In this document: positions 29,901-64,000 of the stretch, one piece after another | How positions within the stretch are numbered: the first letter of the stretch is position 1 | Layout: every line of letters begins with the position of its first letter | Assembly: GCA_000708835.1 (NCBI GenBank) | Contig: DF237105.1 | Location: 33,783 to 97,782, forward strand | DNA length: 64,000 bases | Source: Klebsormidium nitens | Lineage: Eukaryota; Plantae; Klebsormidiophyceae | Direction: 5' to 3' | The notes under the pieces: generated by a model | Databases searched by the model: none | The model's input: the letters and a program-made list of their open reading frames with translations, nothing else | What the model was told of the DNA's origin: nothing | Made by a program: the position numbers and the translations under genes

Positions 29901-30130
29901 CTGTTTTCTCTCCGGGAGGGGTGCTGACGTCAACAGAGTAGCTGGTTCCAAAAGTTGTGCCACAATCTCGGACACTCGGACACGGGTCCACGCCCTCAGT
30001 TGCAGGCGCTTTCTCTTTGGGATGGATACTGGCGTCAACAGAGAAGCTCATTCCCAAAAGGTGTGCCACAATTTGAGACACTCGGACATGATCTGCACCC
30101 TCAACTGCAGCGCTTTCTAACTGTAATGGA
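26945..30130. repeat. About 104-bp repeat family with TGACGTCA core, in both orientations, largely intronic
   Basis: tgacgtca at 27010, 27114, 27218 (+ sense units) and 29820, 29925, variant 30030 (reverse units); scattered copies near 27910, 28780, 28890, 29005, 29118. Confidence 0.8.
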
Positions 30131-37300: not shown

Positions 37301-37405
37301 AGCAAGCGTTGCCTGGGAAGGGCTGCTCAGCAAACCTAGCGCCGCTTCCTTTTCCTTGTCATGTAGTCTAGTCAGACCCATGATGCGGTCTACAAGGTTA
37401 GCCAT
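34340..37405 (-). CDS. Crinkler-like PD-(D/E)xK restriction-endonuclease domain + Gly/Glu linker + protein kinase
   Basis: Exons 37405-36387, 36057-35405, 35134-34936, 34578 (or 34746)-34340 with phases 2, 0, 1. REase-like D..ADVEAK and QQLFGDM..FGALTTYFATVFLRR; kinase ACGRNG, VAVKK, E.LVY..LQG..IPRL, HGDLNLNN, DFE. The linker contains the N gap and a stop/frameshift that may be an assembly error. Confidence 0.75.
35729..35748. other. Assembly gap (20 N) in a C-rich low-complexity tract
   Basis: N run. Confidence 1.
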
Positions 37406-37512
37406 TGCTCCTGAGGCGGATGCTCTAACGCCCTGATAATCATACCTCCACCGTTGGAGGAGGATCAGGTCAAGCCTTTACAAACTTAGCCGGAGAGCTC
37501 GACCAAGCTGCA

Positions 37513-37539: not shown

Positions 37540-37557
37540 GCCAGGCTTCACAGGCCC

Positions 37558-37869
37558 ATCCGATGTACCAGCTTGGGCGATGGGCGCCCAGTGCAATCTC
37601 CCTTGCCTCCAATGCATCCTCAACTTGTTACCCCAAGACGCTCCTTCCGTATCCGATCCCGAACCGAGTTGCATTGGGGTACAACTGGCCATCGAACCAA
37701 ACGTCGCCGCATCGATACACTGACCACCTGATTTGTGTTTGTAGGTGGGTTTTTCCCACCGTTTGTCTGCCCTAGAGGCGTACGCTAGTCTGCGAGTTCC
37801 AGCTGATGAGCCGCACGTGCAAGACGGTATTTTCCGAAAAAAAAAAAAAAAAAATCCGATGTACCAGCT
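37558..37869 (+). mobile_element. 280-bp retroposed insertion (SINE or 5'-truncated LINE) with poly(A) and 16-bp TSD
   Basis: atccgatgtaccagct at 37558-37573 and 37854-37869; A-run 37837-37854 directly before the second copy. Confidence 0.85.
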
Positions 37870-38659
37870 GAGGACGCCCGGGTCGATTCACCGGCCAGGG
37901 GGTCGGGATTTCAGCAAGCCAAGGGGTGTGTGCCATGTGGCATAAAGTCTGGGCCACTCACAGGCCGCCAAGTCAGACCGCCCCCGGGCAGGCCGGCCAT
38001 ACCCAGCACTTTTTCGGTCTTCGTACTGTCGGTTCCTACCCGAAATGCATGGGACCTTCAAGAAGTTCCCCCGGGCGCTGCCGGCCCGACCTTTACCGCG
38101 CAGTTGCGGTCTGCTGGCAAACCGTTCTCAGCTTGGATGCGAGCAACCCTGCCTAGTTGCCAGCTTCCACTCTGAGCTTCCAAGACTCGGAGTTGCCAGG
38201 GAAGAAGTTGAGCAGTGGCGGCCATTGGCGGATGTCTGCAGTCATGGCGGCCCTTGGCGGAAATCAGCATGTCTTGGCGCTCCTTGCCAGCAAACCTCAG
38301 AAGTCCATGATGCCCCTGGCCACCACGTGGCTAAGCATCCTTGACATCTTGAGATGTTTCCAGAGACATCTTGGCAGAGCAACGAGTTTTGGCGCCCCTT
38401 GGCCAAGTGGCGTGGCTGGTTCTCACTTGGGCAAGCTCACAAAGCGGAGTCTCAACATCTTCAGAGGTCGCAATCTAGAGAAACAGAACTTGAAGAGAAA
38501 GAGGCGGGCCAGAGGGGACCAGGGTCTCGGCAAAGATAAGGTGAGTCTACTTCTCGTGCACGTTGAGGTCCAGGCAGCTAGGGAGATAATCTGGCGCTTG
38601 CTTTTGAGCTGTACCCCTTAGTGGCCTGGAAATCAACCTAAATGAGCCTGCTTTCATGG

Positions 38660-38880: not shown

Positions 38881-39399
38881 TATTGGCAGGAGTCCGCGGT
38901 AATCGACACCCCTCTGTTGCAAAACTTGTGCCTAGGGTTGATTTCAGCTTTTGCCTCCTGCGGCTTTAAAAAAATTCAAGGAGGGGGCTGATCTGCATGC
39001 ATGCGTTTGGAGTTTCAAATTAGACCCAAAGAAGGGAGCTTTTTGCTGGGGGACCAATTGAGAGGCCAGTGTTTCAGGGTCAAGGTCAGGGCTCTTTTGC
39101 AGCCCGCAGTGGAAGTTTCTTGCCGGGTGTGGACTTGGTGGGTCTTGTTTGCGAAAAACGCTGATTGCATGGCTGCAAGGCGTTGAAAACGTGTTGCGAG
39201 GCACTGACGCAACGTTCCATGCATTGACTTGGCAGACCATGATTTTGTTTGAGGCTTCGAGCGTGATTGACCAGCCCAAGGTCACCTGAAGAGAAGTCAA
39301 CCAAGCAAACGGCAGAGTGGCGGAGAGCGGCGACTCACCATACGCCAAGATGCAAGTGAGTGGGGGCTTTGGTTGCTACAACCAAGTCAGTCAGTAGGC

Positions 39400-40880
39400 A
39401 CGCTTCAAAAAGCTGATTGTATGCACAACATTTGATTGCGCCCCTCATCCGCCGTGGCCGCCGCTTTGCTCCCTCTGTGGTTGTAGAAGTGATTCAGTCA
39501 ATCTGCACGTTTAAGAAAAGGCTTTTGTCCAAGACCGAATGGGCATTTTGACTACGTCTCCGGCTGTGGGCAAACCTTCACTCAGTCTGCACGTTTTCTG
39601 AGGGGGGTTCTCTGACATGCGCGTTCTGGTGGGGCAGAAAGTTCCAGAATCCAGGCAGGCGCGTCCTGATCGGGCTGCGCCACTGGAGTTCCTCAACAGA
39701 TCGAGGGTTGGACAGCACGTGAATGAGAGTTTTTATAGTCGTCGTCAGGACCCACTGTAGTTGACAGAATCCGTCAAGTCAGTCAGTTTGCTCGTTTCAA
39801 AAGAGCTCAATGTCTAGATGATTCATGCATTTTGACTGCGTTTCTAGTCGTGTCCCTGTTTCTGCGCTTGTTGTGATTGATCGCAAGAAGGCAGTCAATT
39901 TGCACTGCCTTCAAAGTTCAGACGTTTAGTACCCTGGTGCCTTTTGACTGCACCCCAAGTCGCGCCCGGGCCCGCGCTCCAATGTACAGTTGATTGAGAG
40001 ACGTGTCCCGCTGTTTGGACGGAAAGAACTCATTTCATGCCTTCTCTGTGCTGCAGGCGCCAGGAAGTTTGGACGGCCTTGCATATTCGGTTGCGCATGC
40101 TGAGGTGCAACCGGACTTGCCTGCATTTAACGTGGGCATCGAGAGGCCGCTGGTTCAGGTGAAGAGCTGCCCTGTTAAAGCGCAAAAATGAGTCCAAAGT
40201 TACCCTTGTCATGGATGGTTGTAAACTGCGCCACTTGTGATTGATTGCAAGAAGGCAGTCATTTTGCACTGCCCTTGAAGCTCATATGTATAGTACTGTG
40301 GTGCCTTTTGACTGCGTCTTGGCCGTGCCCCCGACTCTGCGCTTTGTGTGATTGACCGCAAGAAGGCAGTCAATTTGCACTGCCCTTGAAGCTCAGATGT
40401 ATAGTACTTTGGTGCATTTTGACTGCGTCCCAAGTCGCGCCGTCCCTGCGCTCCAATGTACAGTTGATTGAGAGTACGCATTGAAAGAAGGCAGTCAAAT
40501 TGCACTTTTTGGAAAAGCTGATTGTCTAGTATGACCGTGCATTTTGACTACGTCTCTCAGCCGGGGGCAATCCTGCGCGCCTCTGTTGTTGAGAGAACCG
40601 AGTCAGTTAATCTGCACGTTTTGGAAAAGCTGATTGTCTAGTTTGACAGTGCATTTTGACTGCATCTCTCAGCCGTCGGCCCACCTGTGTGCCTCTGCGT
40701 TGGATAGAAACGAAGGCAGTCAATTTGCACGTTGATGAAAAGCTGTGTGTAAAGACTCACTGTGCATTTTGACTGCGCCCCCCAGCCTTTTCCTGCCTCT
40801 GCTTCTGCCGCACATGGGTGATTGAAAGGTTCAGTCAGAATGCATCATTCTACAAGCTCAGATGTAAAGATTGCTGGTGC
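39400..40880 (+). repeat. Array A1: about 10 units with inverted arms agtcaatttgcac-N31-gtgcattttgact
   Basis: Units near 39495, 39780, 39895, 40255, 40368, 40494, 40607, 40718, 40833. Arms and spacer length are conserved while spacer sequence drifts. Confidence 0.85.
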
Positions 40881-42976
40881 ATTTTGACTGTGCTTCTCAG
40901 CCAATCCCTGTCTGTTGTGGATTGAAGAGGGCCGTGGGGGTTCCTGATGTATTGCTGCACTTTCCTGCAGGATGCTCTTCTTTCCAATGCATCTCGCAGC
41001 GATGCTCTTCCGACGTCTGCAATCAGAGCTTTTGTGGCGAGCGCGTTGCGAAGCTTCCTCACGAAGTCAAAGAGGGGCCACCGCATCTTCCGGAAGGTGG
41101 CGGGGCTCGTGTGCCGGCGTGCCAAGAAGGAGCTCGGGCTCGTCGGCCTTCTCTGGACAAAGGCGGCTTGGGTTGGGGGCCTGCGTGCAGCTATGGCAGG
41201 TCTGGAGGGTCTGGCGAGCACTCCAGATGCGGGCCTGCAAGACGGCTTCGGGAAGGTTCTGACGTCGATCAAGCAGGCCCACCTGGAGGGGCTGCAGCAA
41301 CCAGCGAGCGCCTCCCATGGAGCGCGCAGGACTACCGCGAGCCCAGCGCCAGCGAGCCCAGCTGCCACGAATGAGGCCCGACCCCCAGCTGGTGGCGCGT
41401 CTAGGAAAGCGAGGAGAGCGAAGGAGGAGCTGGCCAGCTACCTCTTAGGGGACAAAGGTATTAGTGACACATTGATCAGGCCAACTTTGATCGAAGCACC
41501 TGATTGGCCCTTTGCGAGAGTCAGCCGTAAGCTTTGTCTGGGGCACTTTGGCTTACGCCCGAGACTTTTTGGCACGTTGTAATCGATAGCAGACACGAGT
41601 CAAAACGAGTCAAAATGCACGCTTTTGGAGGTATGATGTGTAGTCGATTGGTGCAAATCGACCATGCCATGATGCCCGAGGCTTTCTGGCACGTGGATAG
41701 CAGACACCATTTAAAATGCACGGGCTTTGAAGCTTTGATGTATACTCAATTGGTGCAAATCGACTGACGACCCCACCGCGCGAGGGTCCAGAGATAACGA
41801 GTCAAAATGCACGCTTTTGGAGGTCTGATGTATAGTCAAGTGGTGCGAATTGACTGCCGACTGTACCCAAGACTTTTTGGCACGTTGTAGTTGATAGCAG
41901 ACTTGAGTCAAAATGCACGGACCTTAAAGCTTCGATGTATAGTCAATTGGTGCAGATTGACTGCCGACCATGCCTGAGACTTTTTCGCACGTTGTAGTTA
42001 ATAGCAAAAGGGCTCTCGAGTCTGCAACGGTAAAGATTCCCAGAGCTCCTGTACGAGTCAACCAGGACTTCACCTGTTGTCGTTTTTGACCCCAACTCTT
42101 TGCTTTACCTTCAGTTCCACACAGTCTCCTGTGCGGGGAATGCAGCGCCCCCGCGACCTTTGCGATGCGCGGGGTCAAGGATGGGGGCAGCCTCAAGTAC
42201 TTCTGTGGCATGCATCGCGAGCTCACGGGCTGCTTCAAGATTGACAGCACCCGGGGAGGTGAGCCCTGTGCGACAGCCGTTGGGCCGGCGGGCATAACTA
42301 GACCTTTGCATCTTATCATTGGGTCGCAATAGTTTTGCCACCAACTATGTGAGAACACAAAGTCTGTGGGCATTGTCCGCCGTTGTCCATAAGCAAGCAT
42401 GCATCCTGCATGTGAGCGCTCATCACAAAATCATGTGCCCTTTCCCAGAGTGGGCACGTACCTGTGAAGTGCACAAGTTGGAGGCGGAGCTTGTGCGGGC
42501 GCTTGATGAGGAATCACAGCTTAAGGGCAATCGTGGTGAGGGTTTGTGGGCCTCCTGTGCCGTAGGAAAGTTTGCCTCTTGCTTTGACGATCTGCCAGAC
42601 TCTCTCTTCGCAGCCTCCCATTGACCCTCGGAATGCTTGTAAAGCTCGAATCTTTGTCGAACTTCTTGCTGAATCTGCTTGTGAATCCTCCAGGTGTCAT
42701 GCAAGATCCAATGACCATTTCTTTTCACCACAGGTTGCAAAGGATGGGACCAGAGCGATTACAGGTGGGATCCAGCGCCCAAAAGCAGAGCCCTGATAGG
42801 TGAGTCATTCTCTGGACTCAAGTGTGGTCTCCACTGTTTTCCATCCGTGGCAGACTTGATTGGATACTGACCCAGCGTGTATAAATGCCAGAAACAATAA
42901 GTAAAAGTTTGCTAGCCTGCTCTCATTTCATGGTCGTGTAGGTGGACAAGTGGACCTCCGGGCTTATGGCTGGTGA
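40057..42976 (+). CDS. Multi-exon ORF1 containing an EsV-1-7-like Cys/His motif
   Basis: Exons 40057-40158, 40971-41457, 42115-42258, 42449-42535, 42734-42799, 42942- (phases 0, 1, 1, 1, 1); LCGECSAPATFAMRGVKDGGSLKYFCGMHRE. A probable upstream exon ends at gataag|gtgagt near 38540. Confidence 0.6.
41545..42010 (+). repeat. Array A2: 4 units agtcaaaatgcac-N30/31-gtgcaaattgact, inside intron 41458-42114
   Basis: Units near 41608, 41709, 41800, 41907. Confidence 0.9.
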
Positions 42977-45900
42977 AAATCATTTGTCCACTCGCCCTTT
43001 TTGCAGAAAGCTCTTGATTATCGGCGAAATCGAGAGCAATCCGGGATTTCCAGCGAGCGATGGGGACCGTTCTCCAGCATCAGGAGGGGACCCGCCAACG
43101 CCTGGTCTCGGCGTGGCCGGAGTGGTCGCTCAGCCGCCTCTTCACGATGTGAGCAAGCACCCCTCCGGGCCCAGTGTCCTTCAGCTTGATTGTTGTCGAT
43201 GGCTTGGGGCCAAGACAATCTGCACTGAATTGAAGGAGCGAGTGTTCATGAGAACCTGTGGTGCAGATTGACGGCACCCACTGGATATTTTCGATGAATC
43301 AGCCCCCAGACAATTTGCACTGGCTTGAAGAAGTGACTGGTTAGGACCCGGGGTGCACTTTGACGGCAGCAGTCGTGTAGTGATTCGGGATAAGGGCCTA
43401 GACAATCTGCACAAGCTTGAAGAAGTGACTGTATAGAACCCAAGGTGCCGATTGTCAGCCCCGAAGCTGGTCAGCTCGTGGGCCTGGATCACATCATCCC
43501 ACTTACGGGATAAGGGCTTGTGTATAGGTGTCCGCAGAGGCAGAACCGCCGAGAAGGAGGAGGAGACTCGTCAAGGTCTCTGAGCTTAGGAGCGAAGCCC
43601 CTGCAGGCCTTCGCACAAGCAGCGCGCCTGAACCCATTTTGGGCGCCCCAACTCAGTGAGCACCTATGCTGGGATCCATTCACGACATGCATTGTGCATG
43701 AAGTTGCCGCATCAATCTCTAGGAGCTTGAGATCGTCACAGTGGGACTCTTTAAGGGATCGATTGCACGTGCAAAGAGTCCTAAGTCTGTATGACGGACC
43801 CTCTAATTCTGCAGACTCTTTTCGCTGTTGCAGCGATGAAGCTGAGGCCAGACAGCAGGAGCTGCTGGGAAGGCAAAGCCCAGGACCCACAACGCCCGAC
43901 CAGGTAAGCCTATGGACCTCTTTTCCATAGAAGACCGGTTCTACTGCACTCTCTGCTAAGATCACTAGGCGTTCTGGTCTTCACTTGCATGGGTGTGCGC
44001 ACAAGACAGGCCCTGGCACGACCATGGAGGCTTCACGAGGGGCACACTTCTACCAGACTCCGAAGTCGGCCAGTTGAAGTGGGCTGCGAGCCTAGCCTAC
44101 CTCACACATGGCTCCTGAACGCCGCGGTTGCTGATGCTCGCTCAAAGCTCACCACTGAATATGCAATCTCTTGGCCTCTCAGGCGCGGGGCGAGGAGAGC
44201 GCGCAAGCAAGGACGCCGACCCCGGGAGACCTGCAGACTGGCCGGCCAGCGTCAAAGCAGCGGCGGTAAGCTCTCTGACTATTTTGGGCACTCGTTTCTG
44301 TCACAAAAAAAGGACTCTTGTGCTTTCAGGAGCCGTCGGTTGCGCTGGCTTTGGAAGTACGAGCGGCAAGGCCCCCTTGGGGAAGCGATCTGTCTCTCCC
44401 GGAACTACTCCTGAGCATAGGCCTGAGCATAGGGCTTTGTGAAGGTCTGGCTGATTTTTACTTTTCTGCGACCGCTCAGAGCTTCTAGAGACAAACATTT
44501 GGGCACCCTTCGCTTGCACGAAATCTCTAGAATTTTGACACTGATTTGGCTTGGGGTCAAAAGCGCCCCTAGCTGAAGGGGCTTGGTTGCAAACTTCGTG
44601 CTATGGCTTCTCAAAAGTCCGGCTGGTGTTCATTTTTGTGCGACCTCTTAGAGCTTTTAGAGACGACCATGTGGACAAACGTATCTTGAAATGTTGTACA
44701 GTTCTGATGTAGAAGCGGCCGCAGGATTTTTACCTTGGTCGCGGTGGTAAATACAGCCTCTAGCTGAAGAGGTCTGGTTGCGAACTCGCCCTTGGGCTTT
44801 GCGAAAACTTGTGTGGCTGGTCTTCGTTTTTGTGCAACCGCTTAATGATCTCGAAGGTGAACATAAGGCACTCTTTGCTTGCCCCCGCTGATATGCGCTT
44901 TCTTCTTGCGCATTTTCAGCAGAAAGGCAAGGGCGAACCCTGTCCCCATGGACGAGGCGGCTCGGGATGCCGGTCGAGCGGCTGTGGCAGCGCATCTCCA
45001 AGCTGTGGGGGCGTTGAGGCCCTCAAGAACACAGCGTGAGGGGCAAGCCGTTCATCAAACGGAGCTGGGTGATTTCGAAGGCCCGTCTTGTGCTTCCCCC
45101 CCGGTAAGTTGCCATGAAGAATACTCTCATCTGCAGCGGCCGGAGTAGACTTTTTTGTGTCCCCATTGATTGCTGCTATTGACGTTGCTTGATAAGCATG
45201 TGCGACTTTTGACTTCAACCTCAATGCTCCACCAGACCTTGGCTGCTTTTGGGGGCGCGGTTGGGTTGGTGTTGGGTAGACCTGCTTTGGGCACCTAGTT
45301 TCGGGGCCGTAGTCAAGCTGATTAGGGGGTGCAGGCAGGCTGTTTTGGGGGGCGCGGTTAGGTCGGTTTCAGGTCTGCTGCACATGGGCCTGGTTTTCGG
45401 GGCTGCCGCTCAAGTTGGTCTTGGGGACCACGTTGGTCAGGCTGGTTTTGTGCCACAATCAGGCTGGTTTCGGGTCTGCTCTGCCCTTGGTTTGGCTGGT
45501 TTCGGAGCTGGTTTTGGGGCAAACTGTTTTTGGGGGCGTGGTCAGGCTGCTTAGTTTTGCCGTGGTCAGGCTGGTTCCGCGTTTTGTTGGTTTGCTTGGG
45601 GCTGGTTTGGGCTTATTTGGGGCCGTACTCAAGCTGATTTGGAGATGCAGTTAGGCTTGTCTTTATGTTGGCAAGCAGCCCGGTGTAGTTAGAGCGCTTT
45701 CTTCTGAAGCTGAGTTCCAAGTGCTGTCAAACATGCGGCCTTGCTGGCAACAGGAGCGTTGTAGGGTTGCAAGCCTCATTGCTGCATGGCTTGCTTTTCT
45801 CTCAAACGTGTAAGTCAATCCTCTCTGATGATTGGCTTTCTTGGCGCAGGGGCTGGTGACTGACGCTCCCATCCAGAACGTTGGGTCCTTGGTCGACCGT

Positions 45901-48900
45901 CTGAAGGCCAAGCGGGATGCTGAAGAGGCGGCTGCGCGAGAGGAGCGGCTCAAACGCTATGGGCGTACGCGACCCCTCGGGGCTACACGTGGGATGGGAG
46001 ATGCCTCGGCCCACACCATGGACCAGGATCCGAGCCCCCCTTCCCCTCCACGCTCTTCCGTCCTCCGGTCCCAAAATGAAGTCCCCGGCCCGAGCGCAGC
46101 GCAGCCCCCCACAGCAGCCCCCTCTCTACAGGTTGTGGAAGACGAACGGGCTCTGCCGTCGCCGCTGGCCGACCAGCCCCCTGTAGTTGATTCGGGTTTG
46201 CCTCCCTCCCTGTCGCAACCCCATGATGACCCCCCCCTCCCCCGCNNNNNNNNNNNNNNNNNNNNATCGACATAGCCCCGCTCCCTGACGAAAACCCACG
46301 GCCCGAGGTCCCCGGTCAGCTCCCTTCAGTGAATCCTTCCCCTTCCCACGCCCACCAAGAGCAGGCGCATGCGCCCGACCCGCCAAATCAGCCCCCGCCA
46401 ATGGAGACAAGTCGGCCCACTGCAGCGGAGCCGTCCGCAGAGACGTCGTCTGCGCTTCCGCCCACCGAGCCGCTCACGCAGCTGCTTGGGGATCCCCCTC
46501 AGGCTGCGTCGGTCGAAGACAGCGGGCCCGGCTGGTTGCGAAAACTTGTGTTGGCGCTCCGGCAGCAGCGAGCAAAGGGCCATGCGATCGTCGTGGCTCA
46601 GGACGTAAACGGGGAAGGGGCAAAGCGCTGGGGCAGTTTCAAGGACGTCGCAGCCCTGGCGGCGTTTCGAAGGTCGCTTGGGGGACCGGCTCACCTGTAC
46701 GAAGTCATTCAGGACGACGCCTGCTGGCGCGTCTACTTTGACCTGGACTTCTCGGTCGCCACCAAGGATTCCAACGACTTTGAGCGGCGCCTGGCAGCAT
46801 TTCACTCCGTCCGAGACCGGTTCCTGACCTCGGTGCTCAATGTCCCCGAGAGTGCGCTCCGATATCAAGCGTGCGAGGCGCACGGGCCGGCGCGGCCCCC
46901 GAAGCAGGGCTTTAAGTTCAGCGTGCACGAGGTGCCGGAGGGGTTTCACCTGAGGGGATCGGACGCCAGGAGGGCGTTCGGGAAGGCCCTTGGGTCCTTC
47001 TTGGAGAATCCCCCAGACGATCTGAAAGCGAGTGTCGAGCTCATGCGGAAAGAGGGCGGGTCCGACTATCTGTGGGACGGATCAGTCTACGGGCGGCGCC
47101 GCTGCTTCCGGCTGCTAAGGTCGTCCAAGTTTGGGGATAATTTCCGTCCCCTCGTCCCATCGGAGGGCAGCTCCGAGGCGATCGTGGACCACCTGGTCTG
47201 CCTATACTCAGAAGCGGAAGTGGCTGGTTCCACCGAGGTCAGAGCCGCCCTCCTCGGGGAGTGGGCGATCGCGAGGCTCGCCCCCGCTGCCCGGCCCCGC
47301 GTGGGGTCCTTCCGACAGAGGGCGCTCACCCTCGAAGAGACGAGGACCTCACAGGGCCCCGGCGCCGAGGACCTTTCGGAGCAGGAGCGGGCCATTCTCC
47401 TCGCCCGCTACCAGGAGGACCACGCAGGGGCCGAAATTAGCCGGGTGGTCCAGGAGCGGCCGGGAGTCTTCTTCGTTCACTTCCAGGCGCCGGAGCCCAC
47501 GTGCTGCATTGCGGGAAGGCGCCACACATCACCAGGCAACCAGAATCCGTACCTCATCTACAAACGAGACGAGCCGCGCATCGCACGCTATCAGTGCTTT
47601 GCAAACAGCTGCAGGTGAGTTTTTGAAAGGTGAGCAGAGACTTAATGGCGCTTCGCAAATTCCGTCAATTTGCGCAACCGTTCTTCAGAGAATCGGACAT
47701 CAAGAAGGTGCAGATTGTCGAGCCTGGTGTCTGTACGGCAACCTGTCAGTTTCAAGTGCGATCGAGCTAACAAGATTGATCTGAGCGACCCTATCTGGGC
47801 TCAGGTTTTTTGGGGGCCAGTCTCAGGGCCGCGGTCAACTTGTTTGGTGTGCAGTAAAATTGACGGCCAGAAGTCAAGCTGCTTTAGAGCCTGATGTGGG
47901 TTTTGCCGTGGGTGTGTCAGGGGGCCTGCTTTTGGGCATTGTTTCAGGGGCAGCATATGGATCTGTCTTCAGGGCAGCTTTCATTGTTCGGTTGTGTTTT
48001 TTAGGATTGATCTGCTGCAGAGGTTAGGCCGGTTCAGGGGCTCCTGCGCTGGGGCCTACCTTGTGGGCCTCCTTTGGGTTTGGATCTGCCTTGCTCGAAA
48101 TCAGGCTGATTTCGTGTGGTTGAGTAGGGCTGGTCCGATGCTTGGTGCGAGCCTGATGTAGTCCTAGACTACTGTTACAGCGCCGGTTGACATGAGGCTT
48201 AGTCGAGGAGATTTCGGGGGCACATCAGGCCTTAACAGATTGAGCGGCCGGAAATTACTTCAGCGTGGGCCTCAAGGGGTGTTTAAGCTGAGCCTGAGTC
48301 TTCGAAGAAGATTCTACACGTTCTCAAGCCCATCTTACGCTTCCTTTTTGCAGGGGCGAGTGCCGGATGCTGCCCCTGGACATGCTCACCACCCTCGGCT
48401 GGACGGAAGACTACGAGGAGGACCTGGGGATGCGACCCTACCCCGTCTTTGAGATCGAGCACGTCCGCAAGCGGACAATGCTTATTTCCGCCAAGAAGGG
48501 GGTGGGGAAGTCAAAAGCGTTCATGGATTGGGAGGTGGCCATGGTCGGGAGGAACCCCGGGCCCTCTTTCCTCCTGATCGGAGCTAACATCTCGCTTTCT
48601 CAAAAGTATCACCAGGACTTAGTCGACGCGGGCGTGAGGGACGTCGTGCTCTACCAAGAGGCGCCTCCGGGGCCTATCAACAACCCCCGTGTCGTCTGCT
48701 GCATCAACTCTATCCATCGCGTGCAATTCAAGATGGACATCGTGGGGATGGACGAGATGGACATGGTGCTCACCAACCTCAACTCCGAGGTCATGTCCCA
48801 ACGGGGCAGGGTGCTGTCCTGCCTCGAGGCATTCGTCGCGGGCGCGAAGGTCGTCATCGGCATGGACGCCAACATCGACTGCGCGCGGGTCATGGAATAC

Positions 48901-51900
48901 CTCTTCATGGCGCGCCCGGATGCGGTCCTCCAGACCATCCGAAACAGAGGCTTGTATCCAGCGGCGAGGCGCGCGACCATCCGGGTCTTCTCGCAAGCGA
49001 GCGGTTCGCTCGAGTGCATCGGCACCGCCGTGCAGGATGTGTTGGACCGTGTCGCCCGAGGCACGAAAGTTGTTGTGAGTTGTCTTTAATGTCTTTGGTG
49101 ACTAATCAGCCGCTCTTGCTGTAAACAACGGAAACGAGCTGGTTTATGATCTCGAAAGGGTATTATCTTCGTGCTGCTCCCAAGTTTGTTGCATGGTTTT
49201 GAGTAGACTCTCTGTTGCGTTCAAGCTGCTTGGAGTGTGGTCACGCTGAATGAGTATTTGTGGGGCTGTGGTCAGACTGATCTGCGGCTGCAATCAGCTC
49301 TGATATTCAGGATTGTGAGGCTACAATTAGCTCTGATATTCAGGAATGTGGTGGGCATGAGTTTGGAGGCTTGGTTTCGAGCTGCAAATCAAGCTGTTTG
49401 GAAGTGTAAACGCAATCAATTGGGTCCACGGGCAAGTTTTACCAGGCTGTTGTTGACTGGTCGTGGGCTTAACTTCTGACTTGCTTCCACAGGCTATGGT
49501 CAGGCCGGGACCATCCTAATGTTCCGAACGGACTGTTGGGGTCCGCTTATTTGGGGCTTGGTTTCCGGAGAGTCTTTGTTAGACAAATGAACATCCGCTT
49601 TTCACTCGTAGGAAAAAGCTAACAACTTGCTCGGCCATTCTGATGCAGTGCCCTTCGACCTCCAAGCGCTTTGTGAAACACCTCGAACATCATTTCAACC
49701 GCGAGTACCCGCCCGCCAAGTCCCACAAGCGCGGCATCTTTCTTCACGCCGACAAGAGGTCGAAGGCCGATGAGGACTTCTTCCAGAAGGCAATGGCCGA
49801 GCCCGACACCTTCTTGGAGGCGGACTGTGTGGCCTTCTCCCCAAAACTCGGCCCCGGCGTTTCAAAAGAGAAGCCGTACGCCGAGGAGACGGTCGCTTTC
49901 GCTCTTAACAGCCTCAATGGGTCTGACGTTGAGACGCTCCTCCAGCAGCACGCTCGCTTCCGGACGGTCACGAATTCCACCATCTACTACAAACAGGTGG
50001 TCTCGTCAGCAGTGGATCTGCCGCGCTCTACCGAGGCGGTCTTCCAGGCCATCGAGCGGGACGACAGGCAGATTGTCAGGATGCTCGGTGACGCCTCAGG
50101 CTTCCACTTCCTGAGGGGTTCGCGTGGCATCTGTGACCGATCCTCAGCGAGCTGCGTCTTATACGCAAACAACATCCTCGCAAAGGTGGAAAGCTATCTA
50201 GAGTTCGTGCCGAAGCTGAAGGCCGACCTAGAGAAGCAGGGCTACGAGGTGACGGTTGAGCACATCGAACCAAGGGTGGGATTGCCGAGCGCTCAGAGCT
50301 AGCATCAGATTTCTTGAGTTGCAAGCTCATCCGGTTCTGAAGGAGGGCGTTTCAGACATGTGGGTATGTGATCTGCTGTCATGTGAGATCTCATGCGGAC
50401 CTGGACTCTGACTTCGACCTGAAGTTCTACCAGACGTAGGCTGTTTTGGGGGGCGCGGTTAGGTTCGTTCCGCGTCTGCTCTAGGCACCAGGTTTCGGGC
50501 CGTGGTCAAGCTGACCTAAGGTCGCAGGCGGCTGTTTTGGGGGTGCGCTTAGGTCGATTTCGGGTCTGCTGTGGGCCTGGTTTTCGGGGCTGTTTTGGGG
50601 ACCGCGGTCAAGTATGTCTTGGGGAGCGTGGTTAGGCTGGTTTTGTGCCGCCATTGGGCTGGTTCCGGGTCTGCTCTGGCCTTGGTTTGGGGTTGGTTTC
50701 GGGGCTGGTTTGGGGCCGCAGTCAAGTTGGTCTTGGGGACGTGGTCATGCTAACCAATGTTGTGCTGTGGTCAACCTGGTTCCGGGTTTGCTCTGGGCCT
50801 GCTTGGGCCCTCGTTTGGGGGCCGTGCTCAAGCTGATTTGGAAGCAGAATCAGGCTTGTCTTGTGCCGTGGTTAGGCTTTGCAATCAGTCCGGTGTAGCT
50901 GGTGCGCTGTCTTTCAAAGTTGAGTTTCTTGAAGGTGCCGTCAGACATGCGGCTGACAACAGAGGCGTCGAAGTTGTGGCTCGGTTTGAGAGTCCGGCGA
51001 CTTGCAAACAATTTCTTTGAGGCTATACCACGTTTGCTTTCGCAGGAGAATCAAACTCTCACCCTTTTACTTTTGAATCTCCAGGGCAACCTCGAGCGTC
51101 CGCCTCCAGAGGTACCTCTCGGCTTCGACCCAGACCCGGAGCTTCTGGATGACGAAGACTGGCGAGCCAGGTACATCATCAACTCGGACCTGTACGGGCG
51201 TTTGTGCGAGAGGCCGGAGGAGCTGAGTCCGAGGGAGCAGCTCCAAGAGTACCTGTTCGAGATGGTGACGAGTGAGTACAAGGTCGACCCTAGGCGGGTT
51301 GACCACAGCTTCTACCGTCGCTTCTGCGCCCGACACGGACGATGCGAAAGAGACGAAAGAGGCTCACGCAAACTACCTCAGGTGAATTCTGCGACCCCGC
51401 GTTGCGGCTCGAGCAGAAGTTGGAGCTCTTATGCACCCTTCGCTGAGCTCTTTCTGCTGAATGTGAATGTTTGAGTTTGAAGAGTGTAGCACATATCCCA
51501 AGCCAACCAAGTCAGGTTCATCTCTGGTGCACTTCTAATGCTGTTTTTTGATGCACAACCAGGATTGTTCAAGGGGCTAGTCTCAGGGCTGCGATCCATC
51601 CGTTTGGTGTGCAATCAGTTTGACTACAGCCGGAAGTCAAGGTGCTTTGGAGCCTGATGCGGGTTTCGTTGTGGGTGTGTCGGAGGGCCTGCTTTTGCGT
51701 TGTTTCAGGGGCATACACGAAGTCTTTCTGTGCCCTCACTGCAATGAATGAACCCTTCCATTTGCTGCCTTCTGACGATGGTTGTGCTATACAGATTTCG
51801 TGAGCACCGCTTCGCCACCCTCGCCGGCGATCTGGACAGAGCGCTGGGCCAAGTCAATGAGTCGGGCGTGGTCCAGGAGTACGTCAAGGTCGTCCGCGAC

Positions 51901-52335
51901 CCCCTCAACCGCGTGCCGTTTGCGGTCCGCATCCTTGCCTTCCTAGTCGGCTGCGAAGAGGAGCAGCTGGACCATGGAGCGGAGCTGTGGGAGGTCTCGG
52001 AGGAGCGCGTGCAGGCCGCCTATGCGAGGTTCATCGGATTCAGCAAAGAGCAGCTGCAGACCATCTTCAACCTGTACGGCTTTGTGCAGCAGATCTCCAG
52101 GCGCTCGAAAACGGCCGAAACAGGGAAGAATGAGAGAAAGGCTCAGAAGCGCAATGCAGTGGGGAAAGTTCTCAGAGCGGGCCTCGGAGTTGAGCTCCAG
52201 CTGGCAAAAAAGAGCAACAACAAATTCATCTCTCCCCACCTCTTGACGCCTGCAATCTATAGGGGCTTGCATGAGCGATACGGTTCATACGATCCGGGAG
52301 TAGGGGCTGCAGAGGAGTGCATAATTAGGTTGTAA
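42966..52335 (+). CDS. Multi-exon ORF2: Pro/Ser-rich region, AEP (PrimPol/NCLDV-herpes type) primase, Zn finger, UL9-like SF2 origin-binding helicase
   Basis: Exons 42966-43148, 43528-43655, 43834-43903, 44183-44265, 44920-45103, 45850-47614, 48354-49074, 49649-50275, 51085-51381, 51795-52335, all phase-compatible. AEP motifs YEVI..VYFDLD, KFSVH, WDGSVY..FRL..SSK; Zn C..GRRH..CFANSC; helicase AKKGVGKS, CINSIHR, MDEMD, GMDA, FSPKLGPGVS. One frameshift near 51330 and an N gap. The first four exons are less certain than the last six. Confidence 0.8.
43210..43460 (+). repeat. Array A3: 3 diverged units gacaatctgcac-N(32-35)-gtgc..attg in intron 43149-43527
   Basis: Same inverted-arm architecture, and ttgaag..tgtatag spacer words as in A1, A2 and B. 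Confidence 0.65.
45245..45770 (+). repeat. G/T-rich intronic repeat, colinear with 50440-50990
   Basis: ggctgttttggggg..gcg.ttaggtcg.tttc.ggtctgctg at 45338 and 50530; ctcaagctgatttgga at 45628 and 50827. Confidence 0.8.
46246..46265. other. Assembly gap (20 N)
   Basis: N run inside the Pro-rich part of exon 45850-47614. Confidence 1.
47819..47950 (+). repeat. Intronic repeat homologous to 51578-51712
   Basis: agtctcagggc..gtttggtgtgca..gaagtcaag.tgcttt.gagcctgatg.gggttt..gggtgtgtc..gggcctgctttt shared. Confidence 0.8.
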
Positions 52336-52516
52336 AGGTGGTGATTTATTGAAGAGAAGCTGCATAGATCTAGAGAATTTCATTATGTATTGTAGGAGTG
52401 TACATATAACTCATTGTCAGTCTTTTTTCATCCAACCGCGTCGCTTGCCGCGTCCGCAAATGGTTTTGCCTCTTTAAAGCACGCCCTCTTTGTGGCTTGT
52501 TGTAGTCGCTTGCACG

Positions 52517-53492
52517 AGTCAAAATGCACGGGCTTTCAAGCTTTAATGTATAGTCAATGGGTGCAAATTGACTGCCGACCATGCCCCGAGTCGTTCAGGC
52601 ATGTTGTAGTGGATAGCTCACGTGAGTCAATATGCACGCTTTTGGAGGTTTGGTGTATAGTCGATTGGTGCAAATTGACTGCCGACCATGCCCGGGATCT
52701 TTTCTGGCACGTTGTAGTTAACAGCAGAAACGAGTAAAAATGCATGGGCTTTGAAGCTCTGATGTATAGTCAATGGGTGCAAATTGACTACCGACCATGC
52801 CCGGGACCTTTCTGGGCACGTTGTAGTTAACAGCAGAAACGAGTAAAAATGCATGGGCTTTGAAGCTCTGATGTATAGTCAATTGGTGCAAATAGACTGC
52901 CGACCATGCCCGGGATTTTTGACGCGTTGTACTTGATAGCACGCGAGACGAGCTAAAATGCACGTGCTTTGAAGCTCTAATGTATAGTCTATTGGTGCAA
53001 ATTGACTGCCGACCATGCCCGAGATTTTCTGGCACGTTGTAGATAATAGCAAAGACGAGTAAACGTGCATGGGCTTTGAAGCTTTAATGTATAGTCAATG
53101 GGTGCAAATTGACTGTCAACCATGCCCGAGACTTTCTGGCATGTTCAATGTAGTGGATAGCTCACGCGAGTCAAAATGCACGCTTTTGGAGGTCTGATGT
53201 ATAGCCGATTGGTGCAAATTGACTGCCGACCATGCCCGAGACTTGTTGGCACGTTGGTGTTGATAGCAGAGACAAGTCAAAATGCACGGGCTTCGAAGCT
53301 TAAATGTATTGTCAATGGATGCAAATTGACTGCTGCTAGTGACCATGCCAGAGACTTTCCGACTGGGCACGTTGTGATTGATAGCAGTGATGAGTCAAAA
53401 TGCACGGGCTTTGAAACTTTGATGTATAGTCAATGGGTGCAGATTGACTGCCGACCATGCCCATGCCCGAGACTTTCTGGCACGTTGTGATT
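52517..53492 (+). repeat. Array B: 9 tandem units (about 108-118 bp) agtcaaaatgcac-N30/31-gtgcaaattgact
   Basis: Units near 52517, 52625, 52732, 52842, 52952, 53057, 53170, 53275, 53393; linker gccgaccatgcccgagac..ggcacgttgt..gatagca. Confidence 0.95.
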
Positions 53493-53570
53493 GATAGCAA
53501 AAAATTTGGCATTTCGTCTGAGCAATCAGCAAATTTTTGCTCGTGCATAATAAGTTGGTTGTGTTTGCGA

Positions 53571-54086
53571 ATGGACTCGATCATCCGTTATCCACCGAAG
53601 GATCAAGCTGCCATCACAGACATGGACGAACGGGTCTATAAGTCAGTGAGGTCTGCCATCACGCGTTGCTATCTTGAGTTTGGTCGTATGCACACTTACC
53701 TTGATATTGGCTCTTTGGCCGGCTTGCGAGCCTTGACTCACCCCTATAACCTCTCCCACATCACCCGGAAAGTGGTGAGATCCTTGATTGCAGAAGGATT
53801 CCATTGCTTTTGGGACAAGTCTTGCGTACACAGCAGCTCAATGTACACAATCTACGTTGATTGGAGACGTGCATTGAAGTACGCCCAGAATGAGGAAAAA
53901 GAGGCCGGCCACCGGCCTCGAAACGTACGCGTAGATAACTCCGAGCGGAGAGGAGCCTTTCAAGCCTTCTTGAGAACGTGGCGGCAGGAGGAAGCACTGA
54001 TGACTGGGAGACAGAGAATGTCGAAGTGCCTTTCTTGGAAATGCTCGCGAATCCATCGAAGCGGCCGTCTTCACCGGAATAACTAG
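53571..54086 (+). CDS. Intronless virus-like hypothetical protein
   Basis: ATG at 53571; SLIAEGFHCF..YTIYVDW recalls small NCLDV hypotheticals (weak). Confidence 0.5.
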   Translation: MDSIIRYPPKDQAAITDMDERVYKSVRSAITRCYLEFGRMHTYLDIGSLAGLRALTHPYNLSHITRKVVRSLIAEGFHCFWDKSCVHSSSMYTIYVDWRRALKYAQNEEKEAGHRPRNVRVDNSERRGAFQAFLRTWRQEEALMTGRQRMSKCLSWKCSRIHRSGRLHRNN

Positions 54087-54375
54087 AGAATGTGCACTTT
54101 CTAGAAAAATGCATGGCCGTGATAGGCTTGATTTAAAAAAGATGTACAGCCATATTCACGTTTTCTGAGTGGGTCACATTTGCTAGCAAATATGAGGTTC
54201 GATAACTTTTCGAACACGGCTGCTACAACCTTTTTTCGACTGGAAAACATGCAAAAGCATTCAGGCAACTCAGAAAGTACAGAAAATCCCGAACAGCCAT
54301 ATTCACTTATCTGGAGGCCTGACCTCGTTTGTCGGTCCAGGTTTTTTTTCCAAGATTATGTGAGATAAACAGGCC

Positions 54376-55245
54376 ATGGATCCAAAAGGTGACGAACGCT
54401 CAGTAACCGTTCCAAGGACGCTCGAGCAGGCCACGGGCCTGACCCCGCTTCTCATCGACGCCAAAAAGGAATTTCCAAAAGACATTGAGCTATACCAAGC
54501 ACTCCACAAAAGGTACCAAGAAGTCCGGACGTTAATGGATAAGGCACGTCCGCCACCGCAGGTGATGACCGAATCCGAGTTCCGAAACTGGACGACACTC
54601 TCGCAGATCAATGAGCGTCGCGTGGAGCTCCAGAGGAAGGTGAACCGCAACATTTTAACCAAACCATCCGGACAGTTAACAACCGGAGACAAAGTGATCC
54701 TAATCCGCTATTTGGTGCTATGTTTATACAGTCAGAGCGCCACTCTCCGGAATGATTACTCCAACCTGCCAATCATACGTTTTGAGGAAATGCACGCGCC
54801 TTCGGCAAAAGCCCTGATGAGTGGGGGCGGCAACTATCTTCAGGAGTACTCGAAGGGCCAATACAGAGTCGTTTTGAAAGAATACAAGACTTCAAAAGCC
54901 TATGGAGAGCAAAAGATCGACCTTCCACAGCGCACATGCAATGTCATTGCGGAGAGCCTATAGATCTTTCCCAGAAAGTACCTCCTGAGCCGGATGCGCA
55001 CACCGGATGAACCAATGAGCCGCAATTACCTCACCAAATTTTGCGCAAGCATCTTTGACGATGCTAGAGTGGGCACATGTCTGCTTCGGAAGATCTGCGT
55101 CTCAAATGCAATGAAGGATGCACCGAGCATTGCCGACCGGGAGGAGCTCGCTAAGAAAATGCTCCACTCGAGCACCATCCAGACGCGCGTTTACGAATTA
55201 AAGTACAACCCGGATGGATCGCGGATTAATTTTGATGATGCTTAA
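54376..55245 (+). pseudogene. Tyrosine recombinase (PLV/virophage-type integrase) with one in-frame TAG
   Basis: LRNDY (R), YKTSKAYG (K), LLRKI (R), MLHS (H), RVYEL (Y). ORFs 54376..54963 and 54994..55245 share a frame across TAG 54961-54963. Confidence 0.85.
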
Positions 55246-55321
55246 GCGTCAACGTACTTTTTGCAAGTTGAGGTTTGAGCAAAGTTGCGTGCACGACATG
55301 ATCTTGGACCATCTCGTTCAT

Positions 55322-55672
55322 CTATGACACTTCGATGCCTGTGAATGCATCCATTAAAATGGTGGGTGCTTCGGACTCACTCTCTGCGTCCGAAGGGCTT
55401 ATGATGTGAGGTATATTGAAGTCGGCGTCAATCAAACGTTGAGCTGTGGTCTTGTGAAGCCTTTTTGTTCGTCCACTCACGTATCGTTGATACGCCTTCC
55501 GCAATAAGATTGCATCCTGATGTCTGTAGTAATATGCTTTCATATTTGCATTGTGTTTTTCCGGATGGATCTTTGCATATTCCCGGTGCTTTTGACAAGC
55601 TTGGCATGGGCATGGAACAACCCGAAGTATGTTAGAGACGTTTGCAATGCGCTCATTCATGGGATGGACCAT
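55322..55672 (-). CDS. Small basic virus-like protein (CPCQAC..K.YYYRH..L.RKAYQRY)
   Basis: 116-aa intronless ORF between the integrase and the primase. Confidence 0.5.
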   Translation of the reverse strand: MVHPMNERIANVSNILRVVPCPCQACQKHREYAKIHPEKHNANMKAYYYRHQDAILLRKAYQRYVSGRTKRLHKTTAQRLIDADFNIPHIISPSDAESESEAPTILMDAFTGIEVS

Positions 55673-55789
55673 GCTGGACTCAGTCCTACACTGTACATAA
55701 GATTATTTTTTTACTCTGACCGCGGCTCGGCCCGAAAGTTGTGTGCGTTCATTTGACGAGGATTTTTTTCTTTGCGTTGAACAAGGACA

Positions 55790-58489
55790 TTGGGCATGGA
55801 ACAACCCAGCGTCCAGGACACTCAAGCAACTAGAAAAATCGAGGTCCTAGGGCCTAGCAGGATTGGGGAAGAGATGCAACGGCTCTGTAACAATGGTCTG
55901 TACGCTCTGCCCGTGTGTGTCTCATGGGACTCTGTTAGGGGTTCCAAACGGGCTGATTTCCCCCACAAATATGATCACATCAAGGATTTTGAGGCATGGG
56001 AGCGGTCCATCAATTCTGCATTGAAGGAGAAAAGATACGCAAACGGTCTCGCAATAGTCGCCTCAGTCAGTCAAGTATATGTCATCGACATCGATGTGGC
56101 TGCAAAGGGAGAAAAACGACCAGGATTTGAGCTATGGCAACAGCTTGTTGAGCTCCATGGGGAGCCGGATACACTAACAGCAAAAACTGGCTCTGGTGGT
56201 TTGCACCTTTACTTCAAGCTTGATTCTCCTGGTCTCAAGTGGAAGCGGAACTTCTCAGGGGTGAACGTCGACAACAAAACTTTTGCTATTGACGGCAGGG
56301 GGATCGGGGGTGTGGTTTTTGCTCATCCAACAAGCTATGTGAACGGCCGCGAGGAGCTTGCGACATACAAGTGGCTTAATGGGCCTCCCACTTATGAGGC
56401 GTGCAAAGAGATGCCACTATGGGTCACGAAGATGGTCAACAATCATGCCGGTCTGCGTGTTACCATAAGCAAAGGTGGAAAAGAGGAATCTCCAATGGAG
56501 CTTAGGGGCGTCGAACGTCCACCGATTGCAACCCAACCAGTCGGTGATCATCAGATGTCAAACGCAGTTCGTGAGGTACAAAAAATGCTCCAAACGAGAA
56601 CAAAAGAAGACGGGAATGCGCGTTTTGGAGGCACAACGGTGCTTCCCTGAGAGGGCAACCGCGCATTTCAATTCCGCGTGAACGGTCCACGGACTTGCTA
56701 CCTTGGAAAGAGTCACAATGGATTGAACAACTTCACAGTCATCCAAGGCTGTGCTGGAGACTTCCGCAGTGTATATTACAATTGTTTTGGCACTGCCTGT
56801 CAGCACAACAACATCAAAGTTCTGGGCCAGTTGAGCATCTCGGCCGCTCTTGAGCAAGCGTCGGTGGACGAGTTCGGGATTCGAGACCAAAGGGTTACCC
56901 ATGAAAGCAATCTTGAAGCGCGGTTGCCCACGACATTCATGAGGAGCATGGTGTGTCGGAGCGACTACGGAGCCGCTTCAATGTTCACCAGGTTGTTCCT
57001 GCACGACAGGCGAATTGTGTACGATGCGGGAAACTTCTGGTTTTGGGACGGAAGAACATGAATTGCATGCGACGTGGAAGCGTCATTGATCAAGACCGCG
57101 TTCATGCACCATATGGGGGATGTAAAAGCTTTTTGGTTGAAGCGGAACGCGGACGAGAGCCGTGAAAAGATCCTCGATGGAAAACGTGCACGGGACGCTA
57201 GCTTGGTGGAACTCCGCAACGCCAAAAAAGACAGTCACTCGAATAGGACAGCCGAGGCAGCAATCATGAGGACCTTCAGAGCATTTGAGAAGGACGCCAA
57301 TGATCTTGCTAAATGGCCAGGACCCGACGTTGAATCCGTTCCAATCGCCACCCGCTGTTTGACACCGTTAAAGGCAATGTTGAAGCTTGATGGCTTTGCC
57401 AAGGAGCTTAATGCAAATCGAGACTACTTAAACACGAGCTCAGGCGCAATCCATTTGCCAACGGGCAAACTCATACCACATCACCCAAGCAATATGCTCT
57501 CGAGAGAAACCGACACCGATTATGTCGAACCTCATTATCCGTCACCGTTGATTGATGACTTCATGCTACAGATCCAAACACCGGACATCATTGAGGTCTT
57601 GCAAATGACTCTAGGCTACGGCATCACTGGACATTCAAGAGAGCAGCAGTTCGTCATTTTCTACGGACCTTCAAATTCAGGGAAGACCAAGCTTCTCGCT
57701 CTCGTAAAGGCGGCAATCCGGCTGTATTTCTGCACGATGGACCGCGATTGCGTCATCGGGGTTGGCGCAAGGTCAGAAGGCGCCGCTACTCCACATCTCG
57801 TGAAGCTCGAGGGGGCGCACATTGCAGGTCTGGAAGAGACGAAAGCAGAGGACATCTACAACGTTGCGAATGTCAAATCCATTGCATCAGGTGACGGGGG
57901 AATGAGTGTACGGGGGTTGTGCAAGGATCCCGTCGACATCACATACCGCTGTCTGCCAATCATCTGCACAAATTCCCTACCAAAGTTTGACGTTAAGGAC
58001 AGTGGTACGCTGAAGAAGCTTCGTGTGTTTCCCTTTGAACGGGAATTTGTTGAAGAACCCACGCCCGATTCCAACGAACGCTTGATTGATTATCAGCTCA
58101 ACGAAAAGATCGAAAGTCCGGAGTGGAGGAAACAAATGCTTGCTTGGCTTGTGCGAGGAAGCATTGCGTGGTATGCTAGAGGCAGTCTGCCGCAAGTTGG
58201 AGAACTACCACGCAAAATGCAAGAAGCCCTCAAAGGCTATGTAGAAGCAAATGATCATCTCGAGAATTTCATTGCCGATCATTGTGTGAAAGGAGAGAAG
58301 TGGGCAACGCATGTGGACGTGCTGAAGCAAGCATTCGAGAATTATGTTGGAAGGCGAGACCGGCCTATGACGGTAACCGAATTCAAAGGAATGATGCAAG
58401 GTGTGAAAGGTGTCACATATGCAAAGCAAGTCAAGATACTTGGGCGCAATACGACGGGGTACAAAGGGATCAGCTTACGCCGGCAATGA
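55790..58489 (+). pseudogene. Bifunctional Prim-Pol primase + Zn module + D5-like SF3 helicase with two in-frame TGA
   Basis: VIDIDV..TAKTGSGGLHLYFK; RTCYLGKSH..YYNCFGTAC; FWFWDG; GPSNSGKT (Walker A), IAGLEET (Walker B), IICTN. Three ORFs in one frame with stops at 56648 and 57059. Confidence 0.92.
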
Positions 58490-58625: not shown

Positions 58626-58707
58626 GTAATAATATACATCATAGCATTGATGTTTTGCACCTCTACTAAGCGCGCAAATTGTCTCAAAGGCCAATGGAAT
58701 AGGGCGT

Positions 58708-59854: not shown

Positions 59855-60001
59855 GGTAGGTGGCTTGCAAGTGTCCAACACAAACGCGGCACAATCATCT
59901 TTGGCCTTCTTTTGAAGCAACACGTAGGTAGGTGGGGTAGAAGTGTGGTAGACAATCAGCAATGGGGAGGAGAGGAGTGTTCATCGTCAAAAACGTTGCT
60001 G

Positions 60002-63960: not shown

Positions 63961-64000
63961 AGGCGTTCGCAGGATCAGGTAGGGCTAAAAGGCTGTCAGC
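63961..64000 (+). mobile_element. Left TIR of a second element of the same family, running off the window
   Basis: aggcgttcgcaggatcaggtagggctaaaaggctgtca matches the reverse complement of 63318-63354 at 34 of 37 positions. Confidence 0.75.

Follow-up and report, generated by a model that had tools for sequence, protein, structure and literature searches.

What binds the arrays of inverted boxes that accompany a UL9-like helicase gene in the alga Klebsormidium nitens, and what do they contribute to it? The question is raised by a 64,000-nucleotide stretch of contig DF237105.1 (assembly GCA_000708835.1, positions 33,783 to 97,782 of the forward strand), hereafter the window, in whose own coordinates all positions are given. 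An original prediction had described there four arrays of palindrome-cored repeats bracketing the gene, had likened them to baculovirus hrs and had offered them as sites for the helicase-primase or for a tyrosine recombinase downstream. As presented below, the arrays are low-copy repeats located in the introns and just 3' of a multi-copy, spliced AEP-UL9 gene; they are real, structured and tied to an expanded, spliced, virus-derived primase-helicase family, and their function is putative. No description of this gene family or of its arrays was found in the literature searched, a coverage outside which most subscription journals lie.

Anatomy and conservation of the repeat units

With at most one mismatch, AGTCAAWWTGCAC was matched 36 times in the window against 0.33 expected, a number reached by none of 100 shuffles, and arm pairs spaced 26-37 bp occurred 25 times, compared with 0-1 in each of 10 shuffles. 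A scan with a weight matrix made from the units returned 27 arm pairs, among them a weak pair at 14436 that was discarded because a profile search of the window did not recover it. The tally is thus nine units in array A1 (39496-40889), four in A2 (41608-41962), three in A3 (43213-43457) and nine in B (52517-53449), 25 clustered units in all, to which arm-pair, matrix and profile searches added a lone, inverted A3-like unit on the minus strand (47663-47720), also in an intron. The four clusters described earlier, with about 26 units, were confirmed, the lone unit having been missed. Half-units were found at 39389 and 39580. All 26 units fall inside 39.4-53.5 kb by matrix scan and profile search, and the profile search found none in the remaining ~50 kb of the window. 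The exact arm-pair pattern had no match in metagenome contigs or in viral contigs and a single one across prokaryote genomes, one unit in a bacterial metagenome-assembled genome that we take as chance, while Rfam gave no match at E 0.1 over 36-56 kb.

Each unit is composed of two inverted boxes, AGTCAA-nn-TGCAC, with 30-35 bp between them. Spacers measure 30-31 bp, except in the first A1 unit (32 bp) and in A3 (32-35 bp), and units follow each other with a period of ~110 bp (91-125 bp inside runs). The box-to-box offset is 44 bp in 17 of the 25 clustered units, that is, two inverted boxes at fixed helical spacing. In A1 the TT-box stands left and the AA-box right, and in A2 and B the AA-box stands left and the TT-box right. 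The latter two arrays are 70-76% identical over 450-500 bp, have 30-bp and 31-bp spacer subtypes in common and finish in the same register, so that the spacer lengths, subtypes and common end previously reported hold. A1 spacers retain AAG(CT) and TGT-TAG motifs, and spacers average 59% A+T compared with 47% across the window.

Conservation by column was scored in six contiguous A1 units, chosen because every periodic position holds a unit there, and reached 0.94 in the arms, 0.64 in the spacers and 0.68 in the flanks (p about 1e-6, with columns that are not independent). These values agree with the earlier statement that A1 spacers diverge while arms and spacing persist, and the comparison of arms with linkers that had been recommended found the arms more conserved. 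In B, where seven of the nine units were tested, arms and spacer both scored 0.93, a pattern that recent homogenisation would be expected to leave. Between arrays, arms are 0.72-0.89 identical and flanks about 0.3, and A1 and B spacers reach 0.50 (random gapped sequence, 0.39). The 13-bp inverted arms of the original prediction stood in part: across the 25 units, 11 positions are complementary in 19-25 units, but the two central bases pair in only 5 and 3, being unpaired in 20 and 22. At the 11 paired positions a single both-sided change was seen (A-T to T-A, in one unit), so it is the sequence rather than the pairing that is kept, which speaks against arm-to-arm conversion. A hairpin formed by the single strand was also rejected, its folds being weak (energies between -3 and -12 kcal/mol, with z values mostly from 0 down to -2.7). 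That A1 and B have their AA and TT forms exchanged had suggested an invertible switch, which was likewise rejected: spacers and linkers of both arrays are homologous and share one orientation, and therefore the exchange is not an inversion. Since the identity of the two boxes and the distance between them are kept while spacers and linkers drift, we infer that both features are under selection, as would be the case for protein-binding sites on duplex DNA.

The AEP-UL9 gene and its copies

From its sequence, the gene that carries the arrays is a spliced, ~14-kb, multi-copy K. nitens gene predicted to encode an AEP primase, a zinc finger and a UL9-like helicase. The first of these lies in an exon (45851..47614, plus strand) that comprises a low-complexity linker, the AEP primase-polymerase domain and the zinc finger, with a 20-N gap at 46246-46265; it is 100% identical to K. 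nitens KFL_001560170 and 74-78% identical to five paralogues. Eleven K. nitens gene models on nine scaffolds belong to the family (one probably a split piece, and several partial or truncated), which is also found in transcript assemblies of K. subtile. The AEP domain matches human PrimPol (E 1e-12; structural model with Z 19.9, rmsd 3.2 and 229 aligned residues), and C-terminal to it in one protein, through exons connected by splice joints, follows the SF2 helicase core (48354-49074 and 49649-50275, plus strand; PF02399, E 3.5e-14). The best solved match of the protein is the origin-binding protein (OBP) of HSV-1 (herpes simplex virus 1), both in sequence (E 4e-43) and in a structural model of residues 414-1087 against OBP chain 41-813 (Z 24.8, rmsd 13.3, 526 aligned). 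Domain, sequence and fold matches thus support the UL9-like helicase originally proposed and place an AEP domain at its N-terminal side. Motifs of the AEP (YFDLD, SVH) and of the helicase are intact in the window copy, while the C-terminal domain (51085-51381 and 51795-52335, plus strand) has a shift of the reading frame near 51331, across which a contig of the DNA run is identical to the window.

The gene is likely of giant-virus origin, judging from its relatives. In a tree of 54 of the 114 long-enough proteins, 45 of them metagenomic relatives, the nine Klebsormidium sequences group in a single clade (support 1.0); among BFVD fold matches, the top named ones are the replication origin-binding proteins that Bodo saltans virus, Dasosvirus and Marseillevirus encode; and relatives of the AEP-UL9 protein occur in viral contigs of 234-380 kb. 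When loci were searched with an alignment of the helicase exons, neither metagenome nor viral contigs yielded a relative, and P0051 and P0042, each used singly, yielded none either. As a side observation, paralogues contain a 2A-like peptide motif, LL(I/M)IGGVESNPGP (P0004 103-128, P0165 385-410), represented in the window by LLIIGEIESNPGF at 43005-43050. Class A 2A peptides have a leucine stretch, GDVE and NPGP (PMC12338488); in the motif found here D is replaced by G or E and the window copy is without the last P, so that activity is doubtful.

The exon structure was drawn from the two long paralogues P0165 (2047 aa) and P0004, which align to the window exons from 40959 onward, and from four sequencing runs, of which X1 is the DNA run, X3 and X5 are guessed to be RNA and X15 is guessed to be DNA; none is recorded as RNA, and X3 and X5 are referred to as presumed RNA. 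Among the joints listed, the best 15 of 143, GT..AG joints at 41455>42113, 45102>45849, 47609>48349, 49074>49649, 50274>51084 and 51378>51792 occur in X3, X5 and X15 and are absent from X1, and two spliced contigs are identical to the window copy. All of the following features are on the plus strand. The 5' region and probable first exon occupy 37860..38540, with diverged genomic contigs aligning from 38119, cover in the presumed RNA runs and a donor at 38540|gt. Array A1a (39385..39603; one full unit at 39496-39553 plus two half-units) lies in an intron of about 39357-39648, as indicated by a joint 39356>39639 found in X15, X3 and X5, not in X1, with ends that are not clean. Array A1b (39781..40889; eight units with 31-bp spacers) lies in an intron of about 39720-40970, with a joint 39714>40967 in X3 that is less clean than those downstream and an AG acceptor at 40970. 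After a coding exon of the N-terminal extension (40971..41457; tblastn of P0165 127-270 and P0004 1-95, and an identical spliced contig in X15) comes array A2 (41557..42009; four B-type units), which the joint 41455>42113, seen in three runs and absent from the DNA run, places within intron 41458-42115. Exons with a C/H-rich motif follow at 42116..43170 (P0165 288-334 and 397-443; P0004 86-167), the 2A-like motif lying near 43010-43050, and then array A3 (43213..43457; three units with 32-35-bp spacers), intronic by paralogue alignment (exons P0004 109-167 and 208-222) and with no presumed-RNA joint listed. Array B (52494..53503; nine units) begins about 35-55 bp past the end of presumed-RNA contig cover at 52460. 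The arrays therefore do not bracket the gene as had been supposed: A1, A2 and A3 are intronic, A2 by spliced contig and A3 by paralogue alignment, 17 of the 26 units sit in introns of the helicase gene, and only B lies after its 3' end. G+T-rich repeats are also common to introns of this gene (45210-45739 and 50409-50953, 73%; 47813-47952 and 51573-51713, 81%).

Regarding copy number, the 2.6 kb from 51900 to 54500 were compared with the contigs of the whole DNA run, a comparison to which copies below 80% identity are invisible and whose depth is not copy number. Of the 83 contigs that aligned, 38 reached at least 99% identity and the other 45 fell short of it. Many more would be expected from an abundant satellite or miniature inverted-repeat transposable element (MITE); at 80% identity or above the repeat is thus not an abundant one, and the genome-wide satellite or MITE that had been set against the original prediction was not seen at that level. 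Among the best 8 of 103 contig pieces over this interval, one at 90% covers 53215-53744 and joins the end of B (units 7-9) in a second locus to ORF-X, an intronless open reading frame of 170 aa (53574..54086, plus strand), and another at 89% joins the end of ORF-X to the start of a recombinase-like reading frame. In an 87%-identical copy, exon 41034-41515 is followed by 23-24 B-type bases at the start of A2, a joint present in all four runs; arrays of this type thus accompany a second gene copy as well, in line with the predicted association. In separate contigs, other copies remain homologous from 38119 as far as 54426 or beyond, and diverged B-like contigs with unlike flanks have loose ends at 52594 and 52638. 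An A2-B circle, for which junction reads had been suggested as a check, was rejected: joint 41515>53016 has 23-24 bases on one side and fits the A2 of the paralogue, and neither a circular junction nor a go-back joint from B to A2 is among the 15 of 143 joints listed.

A second array family was found at 26940-30120, where it occupies introns of another gene (about 25.5-31.9 kb), with boxes TGCTGACGTCA and CTCGGACACTCGGAC 45-46 bp apart, a period of 104-105 bp and both orientations. Its dimensions are those of the main family and its sequence is different; in eight units the boxes are conserved at 0.98 and 0.81 against 0.66 in the spacer. The gene had no match among the proteins compared. The 5' regions of the two array genes (24900-25620 and 37900-38600) are mutual best matches among 668 windows and were aligned to the same first donor, with a score of 175-179 against a mean of 109-113 and 158-161 for the next unrelated window, which amounts to weak homology. 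If the genes are related, the architecture of the arrays is kept while the sequence of the boxes turns over.

Candidate binders of the boxes

By analogy with herpesvirus oriS, we tentatively propose that the paired boxes are double-stranded binding sites for the predicted origin-binding domain of the gene's own product. Protein dimers would occupy the AA-box and the TT-box, which lie 44 bp from each other, like HSV OBP at boxes 1 and 2 of oriS; the helicase would open the spacer, which is moderately rich in A+T, and priming and extension by the AEP domain would lead to local re-replication. In this way the unit could spread as a selfish element of viral derivation, or could regulate its own expression; for the insertion of copies, the adjoining recombinase-like gene would be a candidate only. 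Since the window copy is frameshifted before the putative DNA-binding part, it would need the protein in trans. In 16 of the 26 units, one arm matches oriS box 1 at 6 or more of 8 positions.

Several observations weigh against this proposal. The likeness to oriS was noticed post hoc, with a rough chance estimate of 0.03-0.25 depending on the number of registers allowed, and spacers with 59% A+T are not an A+T-only melting core. Folded alone, the C-terminal domain aligned with OBP 634-805 over 101 residues (Z 4.1, rmsd 4.0), level with its matches to unrelated chains, and gave no Foldseek match at E 0.001 or better. On inspection of its sequence the recognition motif RVKNL was absent; QKRNAV stands instead, and (Q/M)KRNA(V/I), kept in 6 of 10 paralogue models, may possibly be equivalent. 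Of five giant-virus loci that hold relatives, four were examined and had no such arrays near the gene, which makes acquisition or expansion of the arrays within the alga probable. Host factors could bind the TTGACT/TTGACG present in the boxes, and the gene, being intron-rich and transcribed like a host gene, may be domesticated. As for linkage, the tie of A2 to the second copy consists of 23-24 bases at 80% likeness, flagged weak by the aligner; positions 52335-52508 are at single-copy depth and no listed contig connects array B with the last exon in a further copy, which fits either one large duplicated unit or two adjacent elements; and no element ends, target-site duplication or circle junction were found.

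In an alternative that we consider unlikely, the arrays are intronic and 3' enhancers for factors of TGAC-core type (WRKY or bZIP) that keep the family expressed, the helicase not being the binder. It would suit their intronic and 3' location in a transcribed gene, the outer hexamer TTGACT, identical to the W-box, and the second family at 26.9-30.1 kb, built on TGACGTCA, a bZIP-type site. The inner TGCAC and the strict 44-bp offset, conserved as much as the hexamer, argue otherwise, typical plant enhancers being less strict. Baculovirus hrs also act as enhancers (PMC4535591). Slightly better placed, and still rather improbable, is the view that the arrays are relic minisatellites that grew out of the termini of a MITE or other small transposon, whose boxes were once bound by a transposase and are now passive intron filler. 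The other repeats in the introns of the gene, the isolated and inverted unit, the simple homogenisation of B with arms equal to spacer, the diverged B-like contigs with unlike flanks and the KDZ-like transposon remains at 58.7-64 kb (a weak CxC4 match) are compatible with it, but no target-site duplication surrounds the units, A1 and B linkers are homologous in the same orientation, the 83 contigs on 2.6 kb (45 of them below 99%) show no abundance at 80% identity, and the other 50 kb of the window is free of units.

The least probable of the readings, to which we attach little credence, treats the boxes as sites at which the tyrosine-recombinase-like protein encoded downstream would bind or attach, with B ending a separate viral element of ORF-X, recombinase and PrimPol-D5. 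This reading frame (54217..55227, plus strand), assumed by us to be a tyrosine recombinase from the R/K/LRK/H/Y order of its motifs, has in-frame stops (54361, 54961) and lies behind ORF-X, points which, together with the spacer, tell against the sites for a recombinase envisaged originally. The assignment is by motif, family searches having given none: there was no relevant Pfam, NCBIfam, PHROGs, PDB or phage match, eight close relatives were found in K. nitens and metagenomes, and of four viral relatives one had a weak, sub-threshold SAM-like match. The arms of 13 bp recall those of loxP and FRT, close relatives do exist in K. nitens and metagenomes, and second copies join B units 7-9 to ORF-X and an ORF-X end to the recombinase start. 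Targets of tyrosine recombinases, however, have inverted arms of 11-13 bp around a crossover core of 6-8 bp, which a spacer of 30-35 bp far exceeds, and such a target site was rejected for that reason; there is no sign of spacer inversion between arrays, 17 of the 26 units sit in helicase-gene introns, and among the contigs compared none bearing the recombinase was equal in length to one bearing AEP-UL9.

Should the boxes be origin-binding sites, one could go further and regard the loci as a new class of eukaryotic self-replicating DNA elements, in which an intron-rich, host-transcribed giant-virus replicase with intronic origin arrays, lineage-wise re-evolution of the boxes and a possible 2A-like split would move with an adjacent tyrosine recombinase; taken jointly, these features make an improbable whole. 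Were the sites origins, the locus would show one way in which a giant-virus gene can become a selfish replicon spliced by its host, here an alga closely related to land plants. Even with enhancers or relics, it would clearly exemplify a viral replication gene that was endogenised, acquired introns, is transcribed and has multiplied.

Known systems and neighbouring features

Primase-helicases of the R8/F1055L type include mimivirus R8, African swine fever virus pF1055L and proteins of OsHV-1 and of mriyaviruses (SF2_hel), and the part of the source available describes them by homology to UL9 and gives no DNA target there (bioRxiv 10.1101/2024.02.29.582850; see also PMC5862659). With the present family, which is nuclear and has candidate sites within its introns, such a target can be tested directly. 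The Klebsormidium gene shares with the Nucleocytoviricota primase-helicases the order of AEP, zinc finger, SF2 helicase and C-terminal domain, and differs from them in being nuclear, rich in introns, transcribed and multi-copy, in the ~900-aa low-complexity N-terminal extension of its family and the 2A-like motif of some paralogues, and in its arrays, which the four viral loci examined do not have. Separately, two giant-virus contigs carry perfect 53-bp inverted repeats just past the helicase gene, with loops of 14 and 38 nt (L006 11885-12004 and L009 11882-12025).

Resemblance of the arrays to oriS or to hrs is by analogy only. In oriS, dimers of OBP bind the inward-facing boxes GTTCGCAC / GTGCGAGC in a cooperative manner (PMC12543377), and the effect of box spacing follows the helical turn (PMC13458718); by our own count, the oligonucleotide given in the latter has 33 bp between boxes, compared with 30-35 bp here. 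The helicases are homologous and both systems have two inward-facing boxes ending in GCAC, but oriS has just one unit, which includes a third box and an 18-bp core of pure A+T, whereas here there are 26 units with spacers of mixed composition, and UL9 has no AEP domain while the Klebsormidium protein is without RVKNL. Baculovirus hrs have near-continuous palindrome cores of 24-28 bp, act with IE-1 and are spread round the viral genome (PMC4535591). Several arrays of 3-9 repeats, an imperfect inverted core and a possible double role as origin and enhancer recall them, but in K. nitens the arms are split by 30-35 unpaired bases and lie in spliceosomal introns of a nuclear gene, and no baculovirus gene was seen. 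The hr-like label therefore fits loosely, and identity with hrs was rejected, as both the near-continuous palindrome core and the baculovirus context fail.

Giant endogenous viral elements have been reported in K. nitens (PMC12344493) and tyrosine-recombinase-rich giant repeats in Amoebidium (PMC11244446). As in those cases, the first of them in the same host, virus-derived genes are clustered here in a repeat-rich region and broken, intronless recombinase-like and primase-helicase genes adjoin; those elements are described as methylated or intron-poor, while the AEP-UL9 gene is intron-rich and spliced. The adjoining genes comprise ORF-X, for which no family was found, the recombinase-like frame and an intronless Prim-Pol plus D5-type SF3 helicase (55781..58489, plus strand; PF09250, PF08706, PHROGs) with stops at 56648 and 57059. 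From 53542 to 56000 there was no presumed-RNA contig cover except a trace of 0.46 in one bin, which does not show silence. Farther downstream, the KDZ-like transposon remains occupy 58650-64000 (CxC4 E 3e-4, under the Pfam cut-off), with a 37-bp inverted repeat at 63318/63962.

Upstream of the AEP-UL9 unit, a poly(A)-ended insert of ~280 bp resembling a short interspersed nuclear element lies at 37557-37870, flanked by 16-bp direct repeats and with high summed depth in the DNA run, and a kinase-like gene occupies 34340-37480 on the minus strand. A second viral-like remnant at 21352-23460 consists of an intronless D5-type helicase fragment and two unassigned intronless open reading frames, and decayed coding repeats of Sel1-like (108-bp) and TPR (126-bp) type were observed at 8287-9300.

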